Shown here: piece by piece, positions 1,986 through 33,828 of the stretch
Layout of the letters: every line of letters starts with the position of its first letter
Numbering within the stretch: the first letter of the stretch is position 1
IMG/VR virus record: IMGVR_UViG_3300047160_036266
Span: 96,001 to 160,000 of that record
DNA: 64,000 bases
Direction: 5' to 3' (one strand)
Source of the DNA: a virus
Lineage: Duplodnaviria > Caudoviricetes
Notes under the pieces: model-generated
The model's database searches: none
The model's input: the letters and a program-made list of their open reading frames with translations, nothing else
What the model was told of the DNA's origin: nothing
Made by a program: the position numbers and the translations under genes

Positions 1986-2336
1986 TTAGCTGGTTGCTGA
2001 GTCTTCGGGAGGGGCCTTATCACCCGGCTGCGGCCCCGAACCATCCTGGGTACTTTTCGACAGCACATCCTTCCCTCCTTTGAGTATGTGGCTGGGATAG
2101 CTTATATAGCCGTCCATGCCCTCTTCTTGCTTCTTCTTCTCGTCGTACTCGAAGAAGGAGGAGTAGTTGTCGTTGATGATGACCTCCAGATCGTGGTGGT
2201 CGATGTAATAATCCTTGTATTTGCGGCGGTCCAGTGGGTCGTAGATGCGGAAGAACAACTGGCCGTCCACACCCCGGAGGAGGAAACCCTTGACGTGGTG
2301 GGCCGGCGTTTCATTGGGCTGGAGGGGTCTTGCCAT
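1986..2336 (-). CDS. Hypothetical protein
   Basis: 116-aa ORF in gene-dense minus-strand run. Confidence 0.5.
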   Translation of the reverse strand: MARPLQPNETPAHHVKGFLLRGVDGQLFFRIYDPLDRRKYKDYYIDHHDLEVIINDNYSSFFEYDEKKKQEEGMDGYISYPSHILKGGKDVLSKSTQDGSGPQPGDKAPPEDSATS

Positions 2337-3699
2337 GTGACATCACCTTTGGTTCGATTAGGGTTCCAGGCATGAAAATACCCATGTATTCACGCATGTC
2401 GTCGTAGATCGCCCGTAGCGTCCCCGTCATGGGATTCTTCTTGCACTCCTCAATGTGGACATCGCAGAAGTGGTGCCAGAAGAATGTGAAAAGCAGAAAA
2501 CCTGCCTCCGTCCAGTCATATTCCTCGAAGGCGGCGTTAATGCGCTTCTTAAAGTCCAGCCACTCATTCCAGACCGCCTCATTCTTGCCATCGTCAGTCT
2601 GCAAGTCCAAGAAACGCTTGGCGTTGCGCCACTTATTGACGCAGCGCTTGCCATATTCCATGACGACGGGGTTGATGCGGGCGTCGGACCCGACCTGGGG
2701 TTGTGCGGCCCAATAGCGGACGCCATCCGAAGTATGCTGGTCCATATACTTGCCAGGAGGGACGAAGTTGCCAGCCGTCTTGGAAATCTTCTTCCCTTTA
2801 TCGTCCAGAGCGTGCCCGCAGATCACTATGGTTCGCCACGGTATCTGGTCGTTGTGAAGGACGCTTTTGATGATTGTGAAGAGCGCCCAGGTGCGGATAA
2901 TGTCGTGCGCTTGGAAACGAACGTCGAAGATTGGGCATTTGAGAGTGAGTTCGTACTGGTTGGCCTCGTGCCAGGCTAGTTGCGGCGACAGGCTGGACGT
3001 GTGCCAGGTGTCAAAAACGATACCCGGCTCGCCGGGGATGGGGATGCCGTAGTTCCGTTCCCGGCTGATAGACCAGTCCGAATCGCACTGATCCAGCCAG
3101 GAGAGGAGGCGGCCCTTGTACATCTCCGGCTTCCAAACGATCTGGTCAATGGCGGCACGGATGCGGGGCAGGTTGTCGAGGACTTTGATGAACCAACCCT
3201 CACCCCGGCGAAGCTCGACCTTAGCACCACTGCGCTCGTAGCAACCGTCTTCGGTCAACTCATTTTGGGAGACGGAAACCTTGGTGAGCGGGCAGTAGTA
3301 GTATTCCCGCTCGGCCTTATACGCCTGGCCCTTGTCCACCAAGTCCTTGAAGGACAGTTCGGCCAGTTTGATGGCGAAGGGGCAGAAGGTGGTGTAGTGG
3401 TGCCAGGACCAGGCCATTGCCAGGCGCATGAAGAGAAGGTGGTAAGCGATGGACTCGTGGTAGGAAAAGTCAATGATCTTGTCCTGGTCGGTGATTCCAG
3501 CGGCCTGGGCGAGCTTTTCGGTGGGCAACCCGTTGTTGTCGTAGCAATAGGGGTAGACTAGGTATTCGCCCTTGATGTGGCGGTGGTAACGGGCAATGAA
3601 GTCCATTTGGGCGTAGCTGAAGACGTGCCCCATGTGGAGGTTGCCGCTAATCGTAGGCGGCGGACAGTCGATGAGAAAGCGTTTGTTCTTGTCGTGCAT
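2311..3699 (-). CDS. valS: Miniature valyl-tRNA synthetase (archaeal/type-2-like), no CP1 editing domain, truncated C-terminus
   Basis: IDCPPPTISGNLHMGH (HIGH), YDNNGLPTE, DWSISRER.YGIPIP, FDTW.TSSLSP, QAHDIIRTW, KISKT (KMSKS); start taken at ATG 3699; about 460 aa. Confidence 0.85.
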   Translation of the reverse strand: MHDKNKRFLIDCPPPTISGNLHMGHVFSYAQMDFIARYHRHIKGEYLVYPYCYDNNGLPTEKLAQAAGITDQDKIIDFSYHESIAYHLLFMRLAMAWSWHHYTTFCPFAIKLAELSFKDLVDKGQAYKAEREYYYCPLTKVSVSQNELTEDGCYERSGAKVELRRGEGWFIKVLDNLPRIRAAIDQIVWKPEMYKGRLLSWLDQCDSDWSISRERNYGIPIPGEPGIVFDTWHTSSLSPQLAWHEANQYELTLKCPIFDVRFQAHDIIRTWALFTIIKSVLHNDQIPWRTIVICGHALDDKGKKISKTAGNFVPPGKYMDQHTSDGVRYWAAQPQVGSDARINPVVMEYGKRCVNKWRNAKRFLDLQTDDGKNEAVWNEWLDFKKRINAAFEEYDWTEAGFLLFTFFWHHFCDVHIEECKKNPMTGTLRAIYDDMREYMGIFMPGTLIEPKVMSHGKTPPAQ

Positions 3700-3857
3700 G
3701 GTGGGTTTGTCCGGTGAGAGAGCGTGTGGAAACGACGGGGCCACGCTCCTCCACGGAGACGCAGCCCGAAGCCACGCCCACACGGACAACAAAACTAGCC
3801 GCAAGAACGGTCATGTAGGTATTATACGTCAGTGTCGCTCAAAACGCTACCCGAAAA

Positions 3858-3952
3858 TGCCCAGGGCGGGACTCGAACCCGCACGGGAGTTACCTCCCAC
3901 GGGATTTTAAGCCGACTTAAATCCCGTGTGTCTACCATTCCACCACCTGGGC
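3858..3952 (-). tRNA. tRNA-Leu(TAA), class II, with a 10-nt insertion in the anticodon arm
   Basis: GCCCAGG/CCTGGGC acceptor, A73, D-loop TGG, long variable arm, GGTTCGAGTCC; anticodon arm is 27 nt (CGGGATTTAAGTCGGCTTAAAATCCCG) instead of 17. Confidence 0.85.
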
Positions 3953-6366: not shown

Positions 6367-6381
6367 AGCAGTTCCTTAATA

Positions 6382-6628
6382 GGTAGCACACTCCCGTAAG
6401 CAGGATTCTGTTCTATGCCATCATTTATCTCACAGGCCGTGGTGGGCCTGCGGCCTTGCGGCTGCACCTACCAGACCCGTTGCCCTGCTCACCGGCTGGG
6501 TCTATTTGGTTTGCACCCTCCGGGGTGGTAGCGATACTGAGCCTTGCGGCTGTTCTCTCCCCCGTTAAGCAGTGGTGTCCTGACTTTCCTCTATCCCTTG
6601 CGGGACAGCGATGGCTCGGAGCGCTACC
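6382..6628 (-). ncRNA. rnpB: Minimal RNase P RNA
   Basis: Minus strand: P1 GGTAGCGCTCC/GGAGTGTGCTACC, P2 GCCATC/GATGGC, P3 GTCCC-GCAA-GGGAT, CR-I GAGGAAAGTCAGGACACC, GGGTGCAAACC, GAGCAGGGC, GAGATAAATGATGGC, CR-V AGAACAGAATCCTGCTTA; P4 covaries (AAGTCAGGA/TCCTGCTT); 247 nt. Confidence 0.85.
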
Positions 6629-6671: not shown

Positions 6672-9185
6672 TCAATCTTCTGAGCCGCCGTCCGTTCCTG
6701 GGTCAGCGTCCTCCGATCCGTCGTCGCTCCAGGTCACATCCGGCGAGTTCCAATCCCAATCATCTGCGTTTTGAAGCCGCAATCGACAGACATTTCCAAA
6801 AAGGAGACGCCGGCCAGAGTCGTCATGGGTAATAACCGACTGGCTAGGATTAGCCGTTACCACATAACGGAAACCTGTGGTTTGTTCCCAACAACCTTGC
6901 CTCACGACCTCCTGAATAATGTAGCGACCGGGCCGAACGTAGAATAGCAGATCGCCGTTCCTGTCCGTTTCGCCCACTATCCTGTCATTTGCCAGAATGC
7001 GCCATCCCGCCAGACCTTCCTCGTCAGGGTCCAGTTCCCCATTGCCATTACGGTCGTTGAACTTGTGAACCAGAATGGCCACCTTGATAGGTCCAGGCTC
7101 GGCACTATCATCGCCGCCGCCTCCTCCACTTAAATTTCTTGGCGGGCCAGTTATCACTGGCTCAAAGGGATTGTAGGGCGAAACCACAAAAGGAGGATTC
7201 TGATTGGGCAGATAAGGCAGGAGGGATATAATCGCGTAGAGTATCTTTATCTTTAGCAATGCTCGCAGAATGTCTCCCTCAAGTGCCAAGTCAGGGTTTT
7301 CACCTGGGGGTTTTTCGCCACCGTCTCCTGGGGGCTTACCACCGCCACCGCCACCGCCACCGCCACCGCCACCGCCACCACCACCACCGCCACCATTTTG
7401 GGGAATTACCACGGTTTGTTCGGTGATTCCTCCCTGGTCGTTAGTAGCGTGGTTATTGCTGTCGCCGTTATAGTGAACCGTCCATGTATATTTGCCGGGC
7501 ACCGATCCCAGGGTGAAGCCGATTGGGGTAGCATAGGTTCCATTGCCGTTGACCGTTACCGTCTCAGTGTCCACCGTATTACCGCCCGGCCCCGTCAGGG
7601 TGAAGGTGATTGTGCCAGTGGGCGAAAAACCGCCGGCCAGGATCGCTTTGTCAGTCAGGATGGCCGAGGCCGGCAGGGTCACTGTGTTGGGGCTGGCGTT
7701 CGTAACCAGCGTGGGGCTGTTTGGTGTAATCACTGCTCGCTCCTGTGCAGGATTACTGTCGCTGAGGCTGTTGTTGTTGCCGTCGCCGCTGTAGGTGGCG
7801 ACCCAGAGGTAGGTGCCAGCGCCCGCCCCTGTGAAGCCGATGGGCGTTGTATAAGTGCCATTCCCATTGACCGTGACCATCTCCGTGTCCACAGGCAGGA
7901 TTCCACCGTTGAGGAATAGTCTGAAGGTGATAGTCCCGGTGGGGTCGAATCCCCCGGCCAGGATTGCCTTGTCAGTTAGCACTGGAGCCGGCAAAGGGGC
8001 TGTGGCGGGGCTGGCGGCTGTGAACAAGTTCGGACTGGCCGGTGTAATGACAACCCGCTCCTGGGTGGGATTGTTGTCGATGGTTCCATTATTATTGGGA
8101 TCGCCGCTATAGGTAGCGACCCATTGATAAGTGCCGGCTCCTGTGGCTGCATTCAAGGTGAAACCGACAGGTGTGGTGTAGGTGCCGTTGCCAAGTACCG
8201 CAACCATTTCCGTGTCCACGGGCAGGATGCCGCCGTTGAAGAACAATCTAAAGGTGATGCTGCCGACCTCGAAGAAGCCGCCGCTCAGCGTAGCCGAGTC
8301 CTTCAGCACCGTGGGTGTGTTGCCCAGGGTGACGGCGCTTGGATTGGCGCTGGTGGTCAGTGTCGGATTCGCCGGACTTACGACGGTTTGTTCTGCGGTC
8401 CCTCCTTGGTCGTTGGCGGGACTGTTTGCGCTATCGCCGCTGTAGTGAACTGACCATGTATAGGTGCCGGCCACTGATCCGGTGATGGATATATTGGTGC
8501 TGGCGCTGTAGGTGCCGTTACCGTTGACCGTTTCGGTCTGGGTGGACGAGAAACCGCCTGGGCCGTTCAACGTGAAGACGATGGTGCCTCCAGGGGAGTT
8601 GCCGCCGGACAGCACTGCCGTGTCGCTTAGTGATGCTATGCTCATCCCCAGCGTGATGGCGTTGCTGGCGGTGGTTATGAGCGTGGGTTGGACCACCGCC
8701 AGAACCTTGAAATTGTCCGTCTTGCTGTTGTTATTTTCAAAACCGAAATTGCTGTGAGGATCACCCGGATTATAGTCCGCCACCGGCGTCAGCCACACCT
8801 TGTAATTCCCCCCTGGGTTGGGCGTGGTGCTAAAGGGGAAAAGACCCACCGTTATGCCGCCGAAGACCGAGACGCCGATAGCGTGCGTCGTGCCGAGGTA
8901 AGCGTCGAAAACGCCCGCTGCTGAAACATGGGCCTCACGCTCGGTGATCGGGTCGGTGGAAAGTAGAGTGGAGCCGTTCGGGTCGGTGACTTGAAAAAAA
9001 TAGTCGCCGCTTGGGGTGTTGCCCTGGTTGCTATTGCCGACCCGGATATAAACGTCCGACTTGTTGGCGAAGTTGTTGCCGTTGATCGTTGACCCATCCA
9101 CGGTGGTGGCAAACACATTACCAGCAAAAGAGGGGCAACATCTATCTTCTAACTGCTCAAGCCTTGGGCGGAAGGTATTTCGCAT
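6672..9185 (-). CDS. Secreted surface/adhesin-like protein: planctomycete leader, four Ig-like repeats, poly-Gly linker, SdrD-B-like domain
   Basis: N-terminal RPRLEQLEDRCCPS; repeats PTL.T.AS...L.D.A.L.GG..P.GTI.F.L...GNGTY...Y.W...YSGD.NN; C-terminal KFNDRNGNGELDPDEEGLAGW. Confidence 0.75.
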   Translation of the reverse strand: MRNTFRPRLEQLEDRCCPSFAGNVFATTVDGSTINGNNFANKSDVYIRVGNSNQGNTPSGDYFFQVTDPNGSTLLSTDPITEREAHVSAAGVFDAYLGTTHAIGVSVFGGITVGLFPFSTTPNPGGNYKVWLTPVADYNPGDPHSNFGFENNNSKTDNFKVLAVVQPTLITTASNAITLGMSIASLSDTAVLSGGNSPGGTIVFTLNGPGGFSSTQTETVNGNGTYSASTNISITGSVAGTYTWSVHYSGDSANSPANDQGGTAEQTVVSPANPTLTTSANPSAVTLGNTPTVLKDSATLSGGFFEVGSITFRLFFNGGILPVDTEMVAVLGNGTYTTPVGFTLNAATGAGTYQWVATYSGDPNNNGTIDNNPTQERVVITPASPNLFTAASPATAPLPAPVLTDKAILAGGFDPTGTITFRLFLNGGILPVDTEMVTVNGNGTYTTPIGFTGAGAGTYLWVATYSGDGNNNSLSDSNPAQERAVITPNSPTLVTNASPNTVTLPASAILTDKAILAGGFSPTGTITFTLTGPGGNTVDTETVTVNGNGTYATPIGFTLGSVPGKYTWTVHYNGDSNNHATNDQGGITEQTVVIPQNGGGGGGGGGGGGGGGGGGGKPPGDGGEKPPGENPDLALEGDILRALLKIKILYAIISLLPYLPNQNPPFVVSPYNPFEPVITGPPRNLSGGGGGDDSAEPGPIKVAILVHKFNDRNGNGELDPDEEGLAGWRILANDRIVGETDRNGDLLFYVRPGRYIIQEVVRQGCWEQTTGFRYVVTANPSQSVITHDDSGRRLLFGNVCRLRLQNADDWDWNSPDVTWSDDGSEDADPGTDGGSED
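7338..7394 (-). repeat. GGT/GGC codon repeat encoding about 19 consecutive Gly
   Basis: (acc/gcc)n run on the plus strand. Confidence 0.9.
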
Positions 9186-9221
9186 ACCATATAAATTGTC
9201 CTCGTGTTGAAATTCTTTTAG

Positions 9222-9305
9222 TGCCCCCGCCAGGACTCGAACCCGGACTCCCGTTACAGGAACTTGGGCCTAAGCCAAGCGCGTCTACCCTTTCGCCACG
9301 GGGGC
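9222..9305 (-). tRNA. tRNA-Leu(TAG)
   Basis: Cloverleaf; CTTGG-CTTAGGC-CCAAG arm, long variable arm, GGTTCGAGTCC, A73. Confidence 0.92.
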
Positions 9306-16826: not shown

Positions 16827-16866
16827 TTTTGGCACTCCTTTGTTTTTGGGGCGAGTACGCCGGGAA

Positions 16867-18150
16867 TTATACCGGCTTCCTGTCGGGCTGTAAAGCGATT
16901 CCGGGCGCGAAGCAGCGCAGCATGGGTAGCAGGGCTTCGACCGTCTGGGCGGAAGGTTTCTGCCCCTTATTCTTGTTGTAAAACTCCATGAGGGTCGAGA
17001 CAACCTTGTTGACCTTCCAACTACGCATGTAGTGATGGAGATTGGCGTGCAGGTCGGTGAGGTCGATGTCGTCTTGTCCCGGTTCGGCCAGCCAGCGGCG
17101 CAGTCGGCCCAGGAACCGGCGGATACCCGTAATGGCCTTATCATCCCAATCGCCGCCGTCCTGGTATGGCCCCAGGAACATGAGGTAGAGGCGCAGTTCA
17201 TCCGGGTCGTAGGCGTCCGGGTTGACGGCGTTGCCCTTGCTCTTCCCCATCTTGGCCCCGCCCGCCGTAATCATACCCTGGTGGATCACCTGTTTGAACG
17301 GTTCCTCCTCTTGCACGATCCCCTGGTCGTAGAGGAACATATTGATGAAGCGGGCGTAAATCAGGTGCATACAGGCGTGTTCCGGCCCGCCTACATACAG
17401 GTCCACTTGCTGATATTTCTCCGGGTGCAGGAACGTGTCCGAATCGTTTTCAAGATACCGGAGGAAATAAAAGCTGGAATCCACGAAGGTGTCCAGCGTG
17501 TCGGTTTCGCCCTCGACGGGGATCGGACAGCCCCAGCGGCGCTGGCGGGAAACGCACCAGTCGTGCAGGTTCTCCAGCCAGGCCCGCTGCTGGTTGAGGG
17601 TGCCGATGGGGTAGTCGATCTTGTCCAGGTTGGCGATCAGGCGGTCCTTGTAAGCCGTGGTGCGGAAGAACCACTGGTTGAGCGACCGCTGTTCAATCTT
17701 GGCCTGGCAGCGCTCGCAAAAGCCGCCGCCACACTGCTCTTTGGCCAGTACGGTGTCGCAGGACGGGCAGTAGTTGACGGGACCGAAGGCTTTGTAGGCC
17801 AGGCCGTTCTCGCGCAGCAGGGTAAAGAGCCATTGCGTCCATTTGATGTAGGATGGGTCGCACGTCACCAGTTTTTCCTGGTACACCGTGTTCATGTGTC
17901 GCATCTGGCCCCGGAAGCGTTCGATGTTGGCCCAGGTAACGGTGGCCGGGTCGCCGCCGATGGAACGGGCGTAGTTCTCGGCGGGCAGGCCGAAAGCGTC
18001 GTAGCCAAAGGGCTGGAAGACCTCGATGCCCAGGTAGCGCAGCCACCGGCAGTACGAGTCCACGATGGCGTAGTTGTAGTAGTGCCCCAGGTGCAGGCCG
18101 GCACCGGAGGGATACGGGAACATGACGCAGCAGTAGAATGGCTTGCTCAT
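16867..18150 (-). CDS. leuS: Miniature leucyl-tRNA synthetase, no CP1 editing domain, no C-terminal domain
   Basis: MFPYPSGAGLHLGH, GYDAFGLPAEN, WTQWLF, QWFF, DWCVSRQRRWGCPIP, DTLDTFVDSSFY, YVGGPEHACMHLIYARF, KMGKSKGN; 427 aa. Confidence 0.92.
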   Translation of the reverse strand: MSKPFYCCVMFPYPSGAGLHLGHYYNYAIVDSYCRWLRYLGIEVFQPFGYDAFGLPAENYARSIGGDPATVTWANIERFRGQMRHMNTVYQEKLVTCDPSYIKWTQWLFTLLRENGLAYKAFGPVNYCPSCDTVLAKEQCGGGFCERCQAKIEQRSLNQWFFRTTAYKDRLIANLDKIDYPIGTLNQQRAWLENLHDWCVSRQRRWGCPIPVEGETDTLDTFVDSSFYFLRYLENDSDTFLHPEKYQQVDLYVGGPEHACMHLIYARFINMFLYDQGIVQEEEPFKQVIHQGMITAGGAKMGKSKGNAVNPDAYDPDELRLYLMFLGPYQDGGDWDDKAITGIRRFLGRLRRWLAEPGQDDIDLTDLHANLHHYMRSWKVNKVVSTLMEFYNKNKGQKPSAQTVEALLPMLRCFAPGIALQPDRKPV

Positions 18151-26003: not shown

Positions 26004-26015
26004 TCTTTTTGGGAG

Positions 26016-26099
26016 TGCCAGGGGAGGGAGTCGAACCCTCACGGGATTTCTCCCACCAGATTTTGAGTCTGGCGTGGCTGCCGATTACACCACCCTGGC
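26016..26099 (-). tRNA. tRNA-Leu(CAA)
   Basis: CCAGA-CTCAAAA-TCTGG, long variable arm, GGTTCGACTCC, A73. Confidence 0.92.
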
Positions 26100-26302
26100 T
26101 AATTGGCCGACATCTTGCCGATGCCGTTACCCTGATGTGCCATTATAAGGACGGCTTCCTCACGAGAGAAACCTTCCGCCATCATAGCGTCGAGGGTTTT
26201 CTTATAGAGGCGGGCAGCGATTTTGAAAATCTCTTCCTGCTTTTCCGCCGCTTCCATCATATATTTGACGGCCTCAAACATCTCGTCTATTTGCTCGATC
26301 AT
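26099..26302 (-). CDS. Small hypothetical protein
   Basis: MIEQIDEMFE..., GGAGG RBS. Confidence 0.5.
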   Translation of the reverse strand: MIEQIDEMFEAVKYMMEAAEKQEEIFKIAARLYKKTLDAMMAEGFSREEAVLIMAHQGNGIGKMSAN

Positions 26303-26316
26303 GGGAACCTCCAAAG

Positions 26317-26400
26317 TGTCCAGGGCGGGAGTCGAACCCGCACGCCCTTTCGGGCACCAGCCCCTCAAGCTGGCGTGGCTACCAGTTACACCACCTGGAC
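26317..26400 (-). tRNA. tRNA-Leu(GAG)
   Basis: CCAGC-TTGAGGG-GCTGG, long variable arm, GGTTCGACTCC. Confidence 0.92.
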
Positions 26401-26612
26401 AGGGGCGGCGGTTGTTACCTCTTGCCAGATCAACATTCTCGGCACGGGGGCCATTGAGAAGGTCATCTAAGCACCAGGGCCACGCTCCGTGTCAAAAGAC
26501 GACTCGGCGTTTACCTGGCTCTGGCAGACGACTTCCCCTTCCGCCGCCCGGTCGTCTACTCGATGGTATCGAAGACGCGCAATAGTCGGGGAAGAGGCCA
26601 AGACAGAGGCAG

Positions 26613-26695
26613 TGCCCAGGGTGGGAGTTGAACCCACACGCCCTTACGGGCACACGGCCCTGAACCGTGCGTGGCTGCCATTACACCACCTGGGC
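26613..26695 (-). tRNA. tRNA-Leu(CAG)
   Basis: CACGG-TTCAGGG-CCGTG, long variable arm, GGTTCAACTCC. Confidence 0.92.
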
Positions 26696-30649: not shown

Positions 30650-30651
30650 AG

Positions 30652-30725
30652 TAGCACGGGTGGGAATTGCACCCACGGCATCTCAGTTTTTGAAACTAAG
30701 TGGTCTACTGTCTGCCTACCGTGCC
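30652..30725 (-). tRNA. Non-canonical tRNA-like gene, anticodon CAA (Leu)
   Basis: GGCACGG/CCGTGCT, A73; D-arm GGCAGACAGTAGACC without GG; 6-bp anticodon stem CTTAGT/ACTGAG; 5-nt variable loop; T-loop TGCAATT; 74 nt. Confidence 0.8.
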
Positions 30726-30729
30726 ATAT

Positions 30730-30840
30730 CCCGTGACAGGAGCATTGCGGTTTTGCGGCTGCGCCGCCTTTACCCCGCTCGCATTAGCCCCATGTCACCT
30801 GCATCCCGATGCGAGCCGTTATGACAGGTCGAGTCACGGG
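30730..30840. ncRNA. Candidate small structured RNA inside the tRNA-like array
   Basis: Closing stem CCCGTGAC/GTCACGGG and internal GCTCGCAT/ATGCGAGC. Confidence 0.35.
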
Positions 30841-30843
30841 AAG

Positions 30844-30917
30844 TGCCCAGGGCCGGAGTTGCACCGGCGGCATCACTGGTTCTAAGCCAATGTGGTCTGC
30901 TGTCTGCCTACCTGGGC
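30844..30917 (-). tRNA. Non-canonical tRNA-like gene, anticodon TAG (Leu)
   Basis: GCCCAGG/CCTGGGC, A73; CATTGG-CTTAGAA-CCAGTG; T-loop TGCAACT; 74 nt. Confidence 0.8.
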
Positions 30918-30920
30918 AAG

Positions 30921-30994
30921 TGGCACGGGTGGGAATTGCACCCACGGCATCGCTGGCTCTCGACCAACGTGGTCTACTGTCTGCCTACCGTGCC
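30921..30994 (-). tRNA. Non-canonical tRNA-like gene, anticodon GAG (Leu)
   Basis: GGCACGG/CCGTGCC, A73; CGTTGG-TCGAGAG-CCAGCG; T-loop TGCAATT; 74 nt. Confidence 0.8.
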
Positions 30995-30998
30995 ATAG

Positions 30999-31072
30999 TG
31001 CCCAGGGTGGGAGTTGCACCCACGGCATCAGAGGTTCTGGACCTCTGTGGTCTGCTGTCTGCCTACCTGGGC
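30999..31072 (-). tRNA. Non-canonical tRNA-like gene, anticodon CAG (Leu)
   Basis: GCCCAGG/CCTGGGC, A73; CAGAGG-TCCAGAA-CCTCTG; T-loop TGCAACT; 74 nt. Confidence 0.8.
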
Positions 31073-31075
31073 CTG

Positions 31076-31423
31076 TTATTGAAGTCGATCTCGGATACTT
31101 TCAAACCACTGGATGAACTTTTCTTTGTTTGGATGTTGCCCTTGCGACACAACCTCCACCGCACGGTCCAGGGCGTAGTGCATATTGCCGATTAGGTCGT
31201 TGAGCCATCGACCCTTGGGGATTGCCGATCTGAGCGCCTTGGCGTCCGCCGGCAAGTGCTGGGCATAAGCCTGCATATTGTGCAGGAGGTTTCCGCCCAT
31301 GTCCCAGCGCCCTTTTAACATTTCCTGCGCTAACCGACCCAGCTTCGTGGTGTTGACCAGGGCATTGGTGACTATCTCTTGGGCTACGTCAGCGGCCTCC
31401 AGCCATTGTCGGAAGGTACTCAT
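31076..31423 (-). CDS. Hypothetical protein with capsid-targeting-like N-terminus
   Basis: MSTFRQWLEAA; TACATA 5 nt upstream. Confidence 0.6.
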   Translation of the reverse strand: MSTFRQWLEAADVAQEIVTNALVNTTKLGRLAQEMLKGRWDMGGNLLHNMQAYAQHLPADAKALRSAIPKGRWLNDLIGNMHYALDRAVEVVSQGQHPNKEKFIQWFESIRDRLQ

Positions 31424-31443
31424 GGAGTTATGTAGGCTTCCCG

Positions 31444-31743
31444 CTACCAAAACGGGTCGCTGTCGGGCTTGCACTCCTCAAAGCCGCCTTCCTTGTCAAA
31501 CATCCGTTCCCACAAGGTCGCGTCCCGATATAGTTCGATGGTCCGGGCTGAACTGCAACAGTCGTGGTAATCATAAGGGTCTTGCTCGTGCAATTCGAGG
31601 TAGGTTGCCTTGTCCTCGAAGAGAATATGCGTGAGCGTCACTCGGTCCTGGCCGAAGCGGCTGACCTTCTGGCCCCGGAAGGCCACGATATTCATGCCGA
31701 TCAGGTCGGTCCACTTCGGAATGCTGGACTTTTTCTTTGCCAT
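31444..31743 (-). CDS. Hypothetical protein
   Basis: MAKKKSS..., GGAGG RBS. Confidence 0.55.
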   Translation of the reverse strand: MAKKKSSIPKWTDLIGMNIVAFRGQKVSRFGQDRVTLTHILFEDKATYLELHEQDPYDYHDCCSSARTIELYRDATLWERMFDKEGGFEECKPDSDPFW

Positions 31744-31755
31744 AATTCCCTCCAG

Positions 31756-31829
31756 TGGCACGGGCCGGACCTGCCCCGGCAGCATCACTGATTTTAAGTC
31801 GGTGTGGTCTTCTTCTTGCCTACCGTGCC
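31756..31829 (-). tRNA. Non-canonical tRNA-like gene, anticodon TAA (Leu)
   Basis: GGCACGG/CCGTGCC, A73; D-arm GGCAAGAAGAAGACC; CACCGA-CTTAAAA-TCAGTG; T-loop GGCAGGT; 74 nt. Confidence 0.75.
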
Positions 31830-31833
31830 AAAA

Positions 31834-31920
31834 TGAGCAGTGGAGGAGTTGAACCACTCGGCATCCGCCCCACTTCTTTAATGCCAACAGTTTTACAGAC
31901 TGCCGTGGGGAACACCGCTC
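31834..31920 (-). tRNA. Atypical tRNA-Tyr(GTA)-like gene lacking a conventional D-arm
   Basis: 8-bp acceptor GAGCGGTG/CACTGCTC; CGGCAGT-CTGTAAA-ACTGTTG; D region reduced to TTCCCCA; irregular T-stem with TTCAACT loop. Confidence 0.55.
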
Positions 31921-32048
31921 AAATTCTTTCGATCCGAATTGACATGATTGCCCAAATGAGTTATTGTCTCCTAACTGTAGTGCGGCTGGACGGGACCGCA
32001 CTACGAGGGCGGGTTGTGCGAGGGGGCACACCCGCCCATTTTATTTAG

Positions 32049-32123
32049 CGCCTGGGAGCGGTATCGCACCGCTGACCTCCGGTGTTTCAAGCCGGCGCTC
32101 TGTCTTGTCTGAGCTACCCAGGC
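32049..32123 (-). tRNA. Non-canonical tRNA-like gene, anticodon GAA (Phe)
   Basis: GCCTGGG/CCCAGGC, G73; D-loop AGACAAGACA (no GG); CCGGC-TTGAAAC-ACCGG; T-loop TGCGATA. Confidence 0.75.
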
Positions 32124-32127
32124 GTAA

Positions 32128-32224
32128 CCGGAGATATATTCGTTAAGGACTGCCGATTTGAACGGCCAATTCCCCTTGTGGGGGAACACATCACCTAGAA
32201 GTATTCCTTAACTGCACCATCCGG
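32128..32224 (-). ncRNA. Y-RNA-like element 1
   Basis: CCGGA/TCCGG ends, GGTGCAG-TTAAGGA-ATACTTC motif, T-arm GCCG-TTCAAAT-CGGC, TTAAGGA/TCCTTAA stem. Confidence 0.5.
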
Positions 32225-32227
32225 TAG

Positions 32228-32300
32228 TGCCTGGGGTCGGAGTCGCACCGACGACCTCTTGCTCTTCAGGCAAGCGCTCTACTGGTTGAGCTACCCAGGC
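32228..32300 (-). tRNA. Non-canonical tRNA-like gene, anticodon GAA (Phe)
   Basis: GCCTGGG/CCCAGGC, A73; D-loop AACCAGTA (no GG); CTTGC-CTGAAGA-GCAAG; T-loop TGCGACT; 73 nt. Confidence 0.8.
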
Positions 32301-32306
32301 ATATAA

Positions 32307-32450
32307 GGCAGGAGAAAAAGACGCTGAGAGAGATTTTTCCCGCTCTACCACTGAGCTACCTCCCAATAATTTCAGAGTTGGGAGGGTCGGGATCGAACCG
32401 ACGACCTGGCGCTTTTCATGCGAAGTAACCCTCAACTGCACCGTCCTGCC
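32307..32450 (-). ncRNA. Y-RNA-like (YrlA-type) tRNA mimic
   Basis: GGCAGGA/TCCTGCC ends; GGTGCAG-TTGAGGG-TTACTTC; T-arm GTCGG-TTCGATC-CCGAC; loop-closed acceptor CCTCCCAA/TTGGGAGG; D-arm GCTC-AGTGGTA-GAGC; no anticodon loop. Confidence 0.65.
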
Positions 32451-32453
32451 TAG

Positions 32454-32543
32454 CGGAAGCGGAGGGAATCGAACCCTCGCCGGTTTTGAAGCCGGTCCCG
32501 TTTTCAAAACGGGTGCAGCAACCCAACATCCGACCTCGCTTCC
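32454..32543 (-). tRNA. tRNA-Ser(TGA)
   Basis: CCCGT-TTTGAAA-ACGGG, long variable arm, GGTTCGATTCC, G73. Confidence 0.9.
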
Positions 32544-33742: not shown

Positions 33743-33828
33743 CGGAAGCGGTGGGACTCGAACCCACAAAGCATATTTCAGCCCATACGCTTTCGAGGCG
33801 TACTCCTCATCCAAGCCGGATCGCTTCC
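33743..33828 (-). tRNA. tRNA-Ser(CGA)
   Basis: TACGC-CTCGAAA-GCGTA, long variable arm, G73. Confidence 0.9.

Follow-up and report, generated by a model that had tools for sequence, protein, structure and literature searches.

Bacterial leucyl-tRNA synthetase (LeuRS) is a textbook multi-domain enzyme. The LeuRS of Mycoplasma mobile has been called exceptionally small; it lacks both the CP1 editing domain and the Leu-specific domain, carries the nonapeptide linker KEEIDGKIT in place of the former and the tetrapeptide GKDG at the site of the latter, and is active, with a kcat of about 2 per second (PMC3643597). Huge phages encode up to 15 synthetases along with many tRNAs, and have been proposed to charge phage tRNA variants with them (Al-Shayeb et al. 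2020, PMC7162821); in the main text of that study we came across neither leucyl enzymes nor domain-minimised forms. Here we describe a LeuRS of 427 amino acids (aa), hereafter mini-LeuRS, encoded in a 64-kb stretch of a 343-kb soil huge-phage record (positions 96,001 to 160,000 of IMG/VR record IMGVR_UViG_3300047160_036266; CheckV completeness 69%). This stretch, at its full length, is the window that was read, and coordinates refer to it unless another record is named. Mini-LeuRS is probably a functional, stand-alone, editing-free minimal LeuRS that belongs to the translation module of a huge-phage clade and charges tRNA-Leu during infection. A literature search, in which not all journals were covered, returned no described minimal LeuRS from a phage or other virus, and the family is apparently undescribed.

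A LeuRS reduced to its catalytic core

Mini-LeuRS is derived from LeuRS, evolves under strong purifying selection, and has kept its leucyl-adenylate site complete, its ZN1 domain intact and both motifs, HIGH and KMSKS. Its open reading frame (ORF) comprises 427 codons and a TAA stop, and its start cannot move upstream: 3 nt ahead of the ATG, an ORF of 57 codons ends in a stop codon. The best profile match is NCBIfam TIGR00396 (leuS_bact; E 1.7e-113, 380.5 bits), with ValRS, IleRS and MetRS profiles much weaker (near 1e-39; 4.6e-39 at best). A PDB sequence search led to the Thermus thermophilus LeuRS 1H3N (E 6.6e-82), the top 17 matches all being LeuRS, and the only PHROGs match was phrog_12710, an unnamed family built on long synthetases. 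The gene and its landmarks are as follows.

16867..18150, minus strand: complete mini-LeuRS coding sequence (P0001), 427 aa (ORF, TIGR00396, 1H3N, AlphaFold model; Foldseek TM 0.84-0.90 to LeuRS structures)
18082..18093, minus strand: HIGH motif, present as HLGH, residues 20-23; both His invariant in 119 clusters
17707..17769, minus strand: ZN1 zinc knuckle Cys128-x2-Cys131-x13-Cys145-x2-Cys148, with E138 and R147 (E. coli E169 and R178; residue mapping, PMC13454842)
17542..17592, minus strand: CP1 deletion junction QQRAWL-EN-LHDWCVSRQ, residues 187-203 (HMMER and MAFFT alignments)
17491..17526, minus strand: second deletion junction PIPV-EGET-DTLD, residues 209-220, where a ZN2 insertion of about 50 residues is absent (alignments)
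17239..17277, minus strand: short linker replacing the Leu-specific domain, then the KMGKS loop (300-304) (alignments)
16897..17142, minus strand: shortened anticodon-binding helix bundle, residues 337-418, ending just past the FAP motif (alignment, AlphaFold model)

Domain anatomy was read from a HMMER alignment to T. thermophilus LeuRS and from a MAFFT alignment with Escherichia coli LeuRS (NC_000913) and longer relatives. HMMER paired residues 6-196, 194-212, 208-296 and 299-359 of mini-LeuRS with residues 36-228, 418-436, 487-579 and 636-700 of the T. thermophilus enzyme, respectively. The entire CP1 editing domain (about 190 aa, E. coli residues ~226-414) is gone, with the two residues EN in its place (residues 187-203 read QQRAWL-ENLHDWCVSRQ), and the Pfam profile of the CP1 post-transfer editing domain, PF13603, found no match in the protein. 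This junction is kept across the family as W-LENLx-DW. At the second junction, E. coli residues ~435-485 are missing. This inserted segment bears, in several relatives, a ZN2 knuckle made of four Cys. EGET occurs at the junction in 74 of 121 clusters, most others being close variants, and the family pattern is PIP[IV]-EGET-DTLD. The Leu-specific domain (E. coli ~569-617) is missing as well, an ordinary loss because several full-length relatives in the MAFFT alignment and the Bacillus subtilis LeuRS (PMC3643597) also lack it. Further gaps relative to E. coli comprise about 35 N-terminal residues, four residues after KMSKS and a stretch near residues 689-705. Beyond E. coli ~775 nothing is left: the last helix of the anticodon-binding domain (ABD), the linker and the C-terminal domain (CTD) are all gone, and family-wide the protein ends within about 10 residues of the FAP motif, with no CTD after it. 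Still in place are the entire Rossmann fold, ZN1, the stem-contact fold and four helices of the ABD, and both class I signatures are present, KMSKS as KMGKS at residues 300-304.

A sequence-only reading of this stretch had reported that QQRAWL runs directly into ENLHDWCVSRQ, which is exact, and that the catalytic motifs are present, as HLGH, KMGKS and the conserved adenylate residues bear out. Both alignments likewise agree with its statement that the CP1, Leu-specific and C-terminal domains are absent from a protein of about half the normal length. Structure prediction and the comparison with E. coli LeuRS, which it had put forward as checks, gave a compact LeuRS core and placed the gaps as claimed.

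A near-consensus sigma-70-like promoter (TTTACA-17-TATAAT, 11/12; 16866-16894, minus strand) overlaps the last mini-LeuRS codons and precedes a small membrane-protein ORF with an AAGGAG ribosome-binding site.

Predicted fold

The AlphaFold2 model of mini-LeuRS, computed from a 79-sequence alignment, reached a mean predicted local distance difference test score (pLDDT) of 93.9 and a predicted template modelling score (pTM) of 0.92, and only the last four residues are disordered. When this model was compared with the PDB by Foldseek, all 50 of the 50 matches listed were LeuRS chains. The best among those listed is the CP1-less M. mobile LeuRS 3ZIU, with a template modelling (TM) score of 0.90 by query and 0.63-0.68 by target, followed by Agrobacterium AgnB2 and the T. 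thermophilus, Neisseria gonorrhoeae and E. coli LeuRS (0.80-0.89 by query). The confident fold and the LeuRS-only matches argue that mini-LeuRS, as modelled, is a compact and self-sufficient LeuRS core rather than a fragment.

A conserved family carried by huge phages

Short LeuRS proteins of this type form a sizeable family. A word-indexed search of 5.8 billion proteins returned more than 100 clusters of 410-440 aa with 65-88% identity to mini-LeuRS. Many carry the plain JGI label leucyl-tRNA synthetase, and the contigs of some are 290-634 kb long. An exhaustive HMMER search covered 1.84 billion representatives, in which clustering at 50% reduces the short form to very few sequences (P0122, 429 aa); scattered CP1-less forms of 530-650 aa were found beside it. 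The phage origin assumed in the sequence-only reading holds, since the gene sits mostly on huge-phage contigs: IMG/VR contains 25 viral contigs with it, including records of 369-519 kb that are 97-100% complete by CheckV, two of them with terminal repeats. It also occurs, with 61% identity, in the 635-kb huge phage LR745206, a genome published by Al-Shayeb et al. (PMC7162821) whose GenBank record is unannotated. The short form was absent from the deposited cultured phages searched.

Residue conservation was counted in 119 family clusters, with roles mapped from the E. coli enzyme, in which L41, Y43, H52, D80, E532 and H533 bind the adenylate and N168, E169, Q190 and the KMSKS loop lock the tRNA acceptor stem for transfer (PMC13454842). 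The equivalents of E. coli M40, P42, Y43, H49, H52, D80, E532, H533 and H537 are invariant, as are those of E169, Q190 and R178 (E138, Q159 and R147 in mini-LeuRS), K619 and K622; the N168 equivalent is Asn in 93% of the clusters. The adenylate residues of mini-LeuRS are thus F11, Y13, H23, D51, E257 and H258, all invariant except F11, which corresponds to L41 (F41 in T. thermophilus), with F in 116 of the 119 clusters and L in the other 3. The zinc motif reads Cys-x2-Cys-x13-Cys-x2-Cys/His family-wide, three ligands being invariant and the fourth Cys or His.

Half the normal length and a score below the family cut-off could mark a decaying, functionless remnant of a captured host leuS. The conservation data refute this idea and leave it a negligible chance. 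Compared with the L090 gene (84% identity), the dN/dS ratio (nonsynonymous to synonymous substitution rates) is 0.15. Length and junctions are common to more than 100 clusters, the predicted fold is compact and confident, and the catalytic residues are invariant. Against more distant phages, synonymous sites are saturated and dN is about 0.3.

The same residues bear on a second alternative, that specificity has drifted towards deliberate mischarging, with Ile, Met, norvaline or some other residue placed at Leu codons, or towards non-Leu tRNAs, giving a statistical or recoded proteome. The editing domain is missing, and 27 positions are conserved in the short clade only, several of which adjoin pocket residues: Y50 lies by D51, F227 by Y228, and C260/M261 between H258 and H262. 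However, the first-shell residues around the leucyl-adenylate are those of canonical LeuRS and invariant, and the neighbouring tRNAs have Leu anticodons and the discriminator A73 (66 of 69 neighbouring tRNA-Leu), which makes such a drift highly improbable. The sequence-only reading had raised a possible tolerance of non-standard tRNAs or amino acids, which is conjectural; the Leu pocket is unchanged.

Searches for the missing domains or a partner in trans

In the genomes searched, no gene in trans encodes a homologue of the domains that were lost. Across the 343-kb record, TIGR00396 matched only mini-LeuRS and two other class I synthetases, leaving model positions 222-410 and 753-843 unmatched. 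The PF13603 profile found no match in the same record, its control being positive in 14 of 14 genomes, and hidden Markov models of CP1, ZN2 and the CTD, built by us from segments of 33 full-length relatives, gave nothing significant in its six-frame translation. Both family searches, repeated on five relatives of 97-100% completeness, yielded no LeuRS-type CP1 above the cut-off and no CTD match. A separate subunit elsewhere in the genome, which the sequence-only reading had named as a point to check, was therefore not found in either the 343-kb record or the five complete relatives. The 837-aa ORF at 6672..9185 was ruled out as a full-length LeuRS; it encodes an Ig-like repeat protein.

These searches concern homologues, and charging might instead depend on a non-homologous partner that replaces the CTD, such as a second synthetase or a protein of phage or host that binds tRNA. 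Cellular LeuRS need the lost domain, and most huge-phage genes have no known function and could hide an analogous tRNA-binding factor. Yet no protein-coding neighbour of mini-LeuRS is conserved across 28 loci, no Trbp111-like tRNA_bind domain occurs in the genome above the cut-off (the best match scores 11.8 bits over 24 residues), and CP1, ZN2 and CTD homologues are absent from the six phage genomes; we regard such a partner as very unlikely. A homodimer that compensates for the lost tRNA-binding domain was modelled as a two-copy complex, and this prediction, run without controls, scored 0.00, which speaks neither for nor against such a dimer.

Association with tRNA-Leu genes

Mini-LeuRS is physically associated with tRNA-Leu gene clusters. 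The window holds ten tRNA-Leu genes, five with a long arm (AAG, UAG, CAA, GAG and CAG) and five armless ones of 74 nt, and it also encodes a second reduced synthetase.

3858..3952, minus strand: long-arm tRNA-Leu(AAG), A73, canonical elbow; putative substrate, judged from neighbourhood only
9221..9305, minus strand: long-arm tRNA-Leu(UAG), putative substrate (tRNA gene calls)
26015..26695, minus strand: three long-arm tRNA-Leu (CAA, GAG, CAG), putative substrates (tRNA gene calls)
30651..31829, minus strand: five armless 74-nt tRNA-Leu (CAA, UAG, GAG, CAG, UAA), A73; possible, presumed substrates
2311..3804, minus strand: mini-ValRS, 497 aa, CP1 region skipped (NCBIfam PRK13208, 337 bits vs the 738 cut-off)

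Among related phages, tRNA-Leu is the recurrent neighbour of the gene, lying within 10 kb in 13 of 28 loci, often in arrays of 4-13 genes that mix long and short forms. Its share of all tRNAs is 46% within 3 kb vs 21% at 3-10 kb (Fisher p 2e-4, 28 loci), a statistic that counts related phages and not phylogenetically independent events. The second most common tRNA neighbour is tRNA-Val. ARAGORN detected no tRNA-Val in the 343-kb record, where the mini-ValRS gene lies 53 nt downstream of tRNA-Leu(AAG); in mini-ValRS, the Pfam Anticodon_1 match is weak and just under the cut-off (23.9 vs 25.1 bits).

This neighbourhood is relevant to a third alternative, in which mini-LeuRS is an adenylate-forming or tRNA-binding paralogue without efficient aminoacylation, serving a regulatory or otherwise non-translational end such as tRNA-Leu sequestering, leucine sensing or Leu-AMP supply, comparable to LeuRS-I and LeuRS2 of archaea. 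CTD deletion abolishes charging in model enzymes (PMC3561953), LeuRS-I can bind tRNA and produce Leu-AMP yet fails to charge (PMC9437257), and charge compensation is not seen in the mini-LeuRS family, all of which would fit. On the other hand, Y43 and the equivalents of E169 and Q190, which lock the acceptor stem, are invariant, and the gene lies within tRNA-Leu arrays that cover all Leu anticodons, as decoding predicts. Moreover, the same phages have mini-ValRS beside tRNA genes, which points to a general charging module. A non-charging paralogue is therefore unlikely in our view.

The armless tRNA-Leu genes of the window have no GG in the D-loop and read TGCAAyT in the T-loop. Both tRNA-Phe genes (32048-32300, minus strand), like the five armless tRNA-Leu genes, have G55 in the T-loop (TGCRA, not TTCRA) and lack the D-loop GG, with A18 in tRNA-Phe. 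This suggests a covarying elbow change, from G18-U55 to A18-G55, in tRNA-Phe and the armless tRNA-Leu of this phage. The T-loop G55 and D-loop changes are peculiar to the studied phage and absent from the short tRNA-Leu of others, which have a TTCGA-type T-loop and keep GG in the D-loop; a family-wide link between CTD loss and a remodelled tRNA elbow was rejected on these grounds. An obligate pairing of mini-LeuRS with armless tRNA-Leu was also rejected: the complete 519-kb relative G004 carries mini-LeuRS and, 230 kb away from it, four tRNA-Leu genes, all long-arm, so the enzyme is not tied to the armless set.

Proposed role in charging and its obstacles

Under the favoured explanation, that of a stand-alone charging enzyme, mini-LeuRS would activate leucine and transfer it to the long-arm and armless tRNA-Leu of the phage and possibly to host tRNA-Leu. 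The tRNA would be held through its acceptor end, by means of the ZN1 domain, the KMSKS loop and the discriminator A73, with the remaining ABD helices on the tRNA body; the elbow contact, which is the job of the CTD in cellular enzymes, would not be made. With CP1 gone, post-transfer editing would be impossible and fidelity would depend on the synthetic site together with whatever pre-transfer hydrolysis occurs. The phage would probably gain a raised or secured supply of Leu-tRNA-Leu for the enlarged phage tRNA-Leu pool at low coding cost.

Several observations weigh against this explanation, and the main obstacle, as we judge it, is the experimental precedent on the CTD. Deletion of this domain from the LeuRS of E. 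coli and from that of T. thermophilus abolishes aminoacylation and post-transfer editing (PMC3561953). Similarly, the Sulfolobus LeuRS-I, with a disrupted CP1 and a divergent CTD, binds tRNA and forms Leu-AMP without charging (PMC9437257). Charge compensation for the lost domains was ruled out, as there is no overall gain of basic residues in the family: its isoelectric point is about 6.4 vs 8.6 for the same columns of full-length enzymes. About ten clade-specific positions are basic, four of them (R351, K382, K395 and R412) in the helix bundle, where they are candidate substitutes for the elbow contact. The genomic association has its own limits, given the shared ancestry of the loci counted and the absence of tRNA-Leu within 10 kb from about half of the related loci. 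Finally, the 380.5 bits of mini-LeuRS fall below the curated TIGR00396 cut-off of 548.4 bits, a shortfall that arises because domains are absent.

The domain losses themselves differ in precedent. Loss of CP1 and of the Leu-specific domain is precedented because M. mobile LeuRS lacks both, whereas natural CTD loss is unprecedented, given that the enzymes of E. coli and T. thermophilus no longer charge once their CTD is deleted. Mini-LeuRS thereby appears to contradict the experiment-based view that bacterial LeuRS needs its CTD, and it poses the question of how so stripped an enzyme still holds its tRNA: either a CysRS-sized core charges tRNA-Leu by an undescribed mode of recognition, or phages use a LeuRS core otherwise.

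A bolder version, which we consider possible but unlikely, is that the phage has private leucine decoding. Mini-LeuRS would then be elbow-independent, reading only the acceptor end and A73, and would charge the phage's own tRNA-Leu, including armless species whose remodelled elbow (no G18G19, G55) may make them poor substrates of host LeuRS, since the host enzyme needs its CTD on the elbow. Together with a truncated RNase P RNA, this could free the phage's leucine decoding from host enzymes and protect it against shut-off by the host or defences that target tRNA. If so, the phage would offer a ready-made compact orthogonal LeuRS/tRNA pair.

Other translation-related features

The phage genome also has MetRS and transfer-messenger RNA (tmRNA). 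Its RNase P-like RNA matches the whole 367-position model within 249 nt and is thus strongly shortened. Four Rfam matches within the tRNA array are sub-threshold and ARAGORN-negative: two additional long-arm tRNA-like genes match tRNA-Sec at 29-35 bits, one segment resembles YrlA (31 bits) and another, short one resembles tmRNA (26 bits). Related huge phages carry paired long (83-91 nt) and normal copies of Asn, Ile, Thr, Met, His, Cys, Asp, Glu and Gln tRNAs; these pairs of usually short tRNAs mirror the long and short tRNA-Leu pairs.

6379-6627, minus strand: RNase P-like RNA, 249 nt (model of class A bacterial RNase P; 65.9 bits and E 7.8e-20, under the gathering score)
31834-31921, 33744-33828, 32339-32409 and 32451-32543, minus strand: sub-threshold Rfam matches (tRNA-Sec-like, two; YrlA-like; tmRNA-like)
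L096 6972-9701; L105 14434-14662; L106 6854-6940 and 18730-20582; L010 10700-11065: paired long and normal tRNAs in related phages

Origin of the short form

A maximum-likelihood tree was computed on the shared 427 columns; the M. mobile enzyme was not included. The short proteins and the 530-aa P0123 form a single clade (SH-aLRT 100, stem length 0.89), and the other mid-length CP1-less proteins are placed separately among full-length LeuRS. These separate positions mean that CP1 has been lost several times, whereas the mini-LeuRS architecture arose once. P0123, found on contigs about 5.6 kb long, has neither the ZN2 insertion nor the CTD. Its CP1 is reduced yet present, includes the Thr-rich segment TTKPET and has Asp where E. 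coli has D345. It may be an intermediate, in which case loss of the CTD did not depend on that of CP1. A protein of about 503 aa encoded by the 735-kb huge phage LR756501.1 / LR756503.1 (191955-193463) resembles LeuRS and aligns to mini-LeuRS in one piece with 32% identity. It looks like a second, more distant short LeuRS form.

Among 185,579 species genomes, mini-LeuRS occurs on only a handful of contigs from metagenome-assembled genomes (MAGs), at least two of which (the 16.5-kb, tRNA-packed L010 and the 375-kb L011) look like mis-binned phage. The 439-aa copy at L009 10001-11320, on a 100-kb contig of a MAG labelled by NCBI as Fimbriimonas sp., is basal in the clade. It lies between glycoside hydrolase and histidine kinase genes, an ordinary cellular neighbourhood with no phage genes and no tRNA-Leu within 10 kb. 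This copy may be cellular, in which case it could be the source of the phage gene or have been acquired from a phage.

Comparison with known systems

The closest described counterpart of mini-LeuRS is the M. mobile enzyme (3ZIU). Both are natural, bacterial-type LeuRS without CP1 and without the Leu-specific domain, and the sequence-only reading was right that CP1 loss is known from this organism (PMC3643597). Its emphasis on that loss needs shifting, though: the loss is real, but the unprecedented part is the absence of the CTD and the ZN2 insertion rather than that of CP1 or the Leu-specific domain. The 3ZIU chain has 637 aa, about 210 more than the phage protein; phage residues 4-235 align to 3ZIU 37-284, where M. 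mobile LeuRS is about 16 residues longer, and we infer from sequence that the latter keeps a full ABD and the CTD. Unlike it, mini-LeuRS has a two-residue EN junction in place of a nonapeptide linker and has no ZN2 insertion, no final ABD helix and no CTD. It is therefore not an M. mobile-type enzyme.

Laboratory CTD-deleted LeuRS and mini-LeuRS share the lack of the domain through which the G19:C56 pair in the tRNA-Leu elbow is contacted. In the phage family, however, this loss is natural, under strong selection and accompanied by an intact active site, whereas the laboratory deletions are inactive in charging (PMC3561953).

The LeuAC urzyme resembles the phage enzyme in being stripped of CP1 and other accessory modules (PMC9026127, bioRxiv 10.1101/2025.04.05.647346), but it is an engineered fragment of about 130 aa, confined to the core, with no ZN1, connective peptide or ABD. 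Mini-LeuRS is natural, about three times larger, and retains most of the helix bundle in addition to the whole Rossmann fold, ZN1 and the stem-contact fold; the term near-urzyme used in the sequence-only reading was thus an overstatement.

The LeuRS-I of Sulfolobaceae and the haloarchaeal LeuRS2 are, like the phage form, additional LeuRS in which CP1 is compromised and/or the CTD is divergent (PMC9437257). They are archaeal-type, nearly full-length cellular proteins with little or no charging activity, whereas mini-LeuRS is bacterial-type, half-size and linked to tRNA-Leu arrays.

Within the same phage, mini-ValRS parallels mini-LeuRS as a class Ia synthetase in which the CP1 region is skipped, although it belongs to another enzyme family (PRK13208-type ValRS). 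The two together suggest that huge phages run an editing-free branch of class Ia aminoacylation. Mini-LeuRS could also serve as a compact scaffold for the engineering of orthogonal pairs, and it provides a natural data point between the urzymes and modern synthetases.

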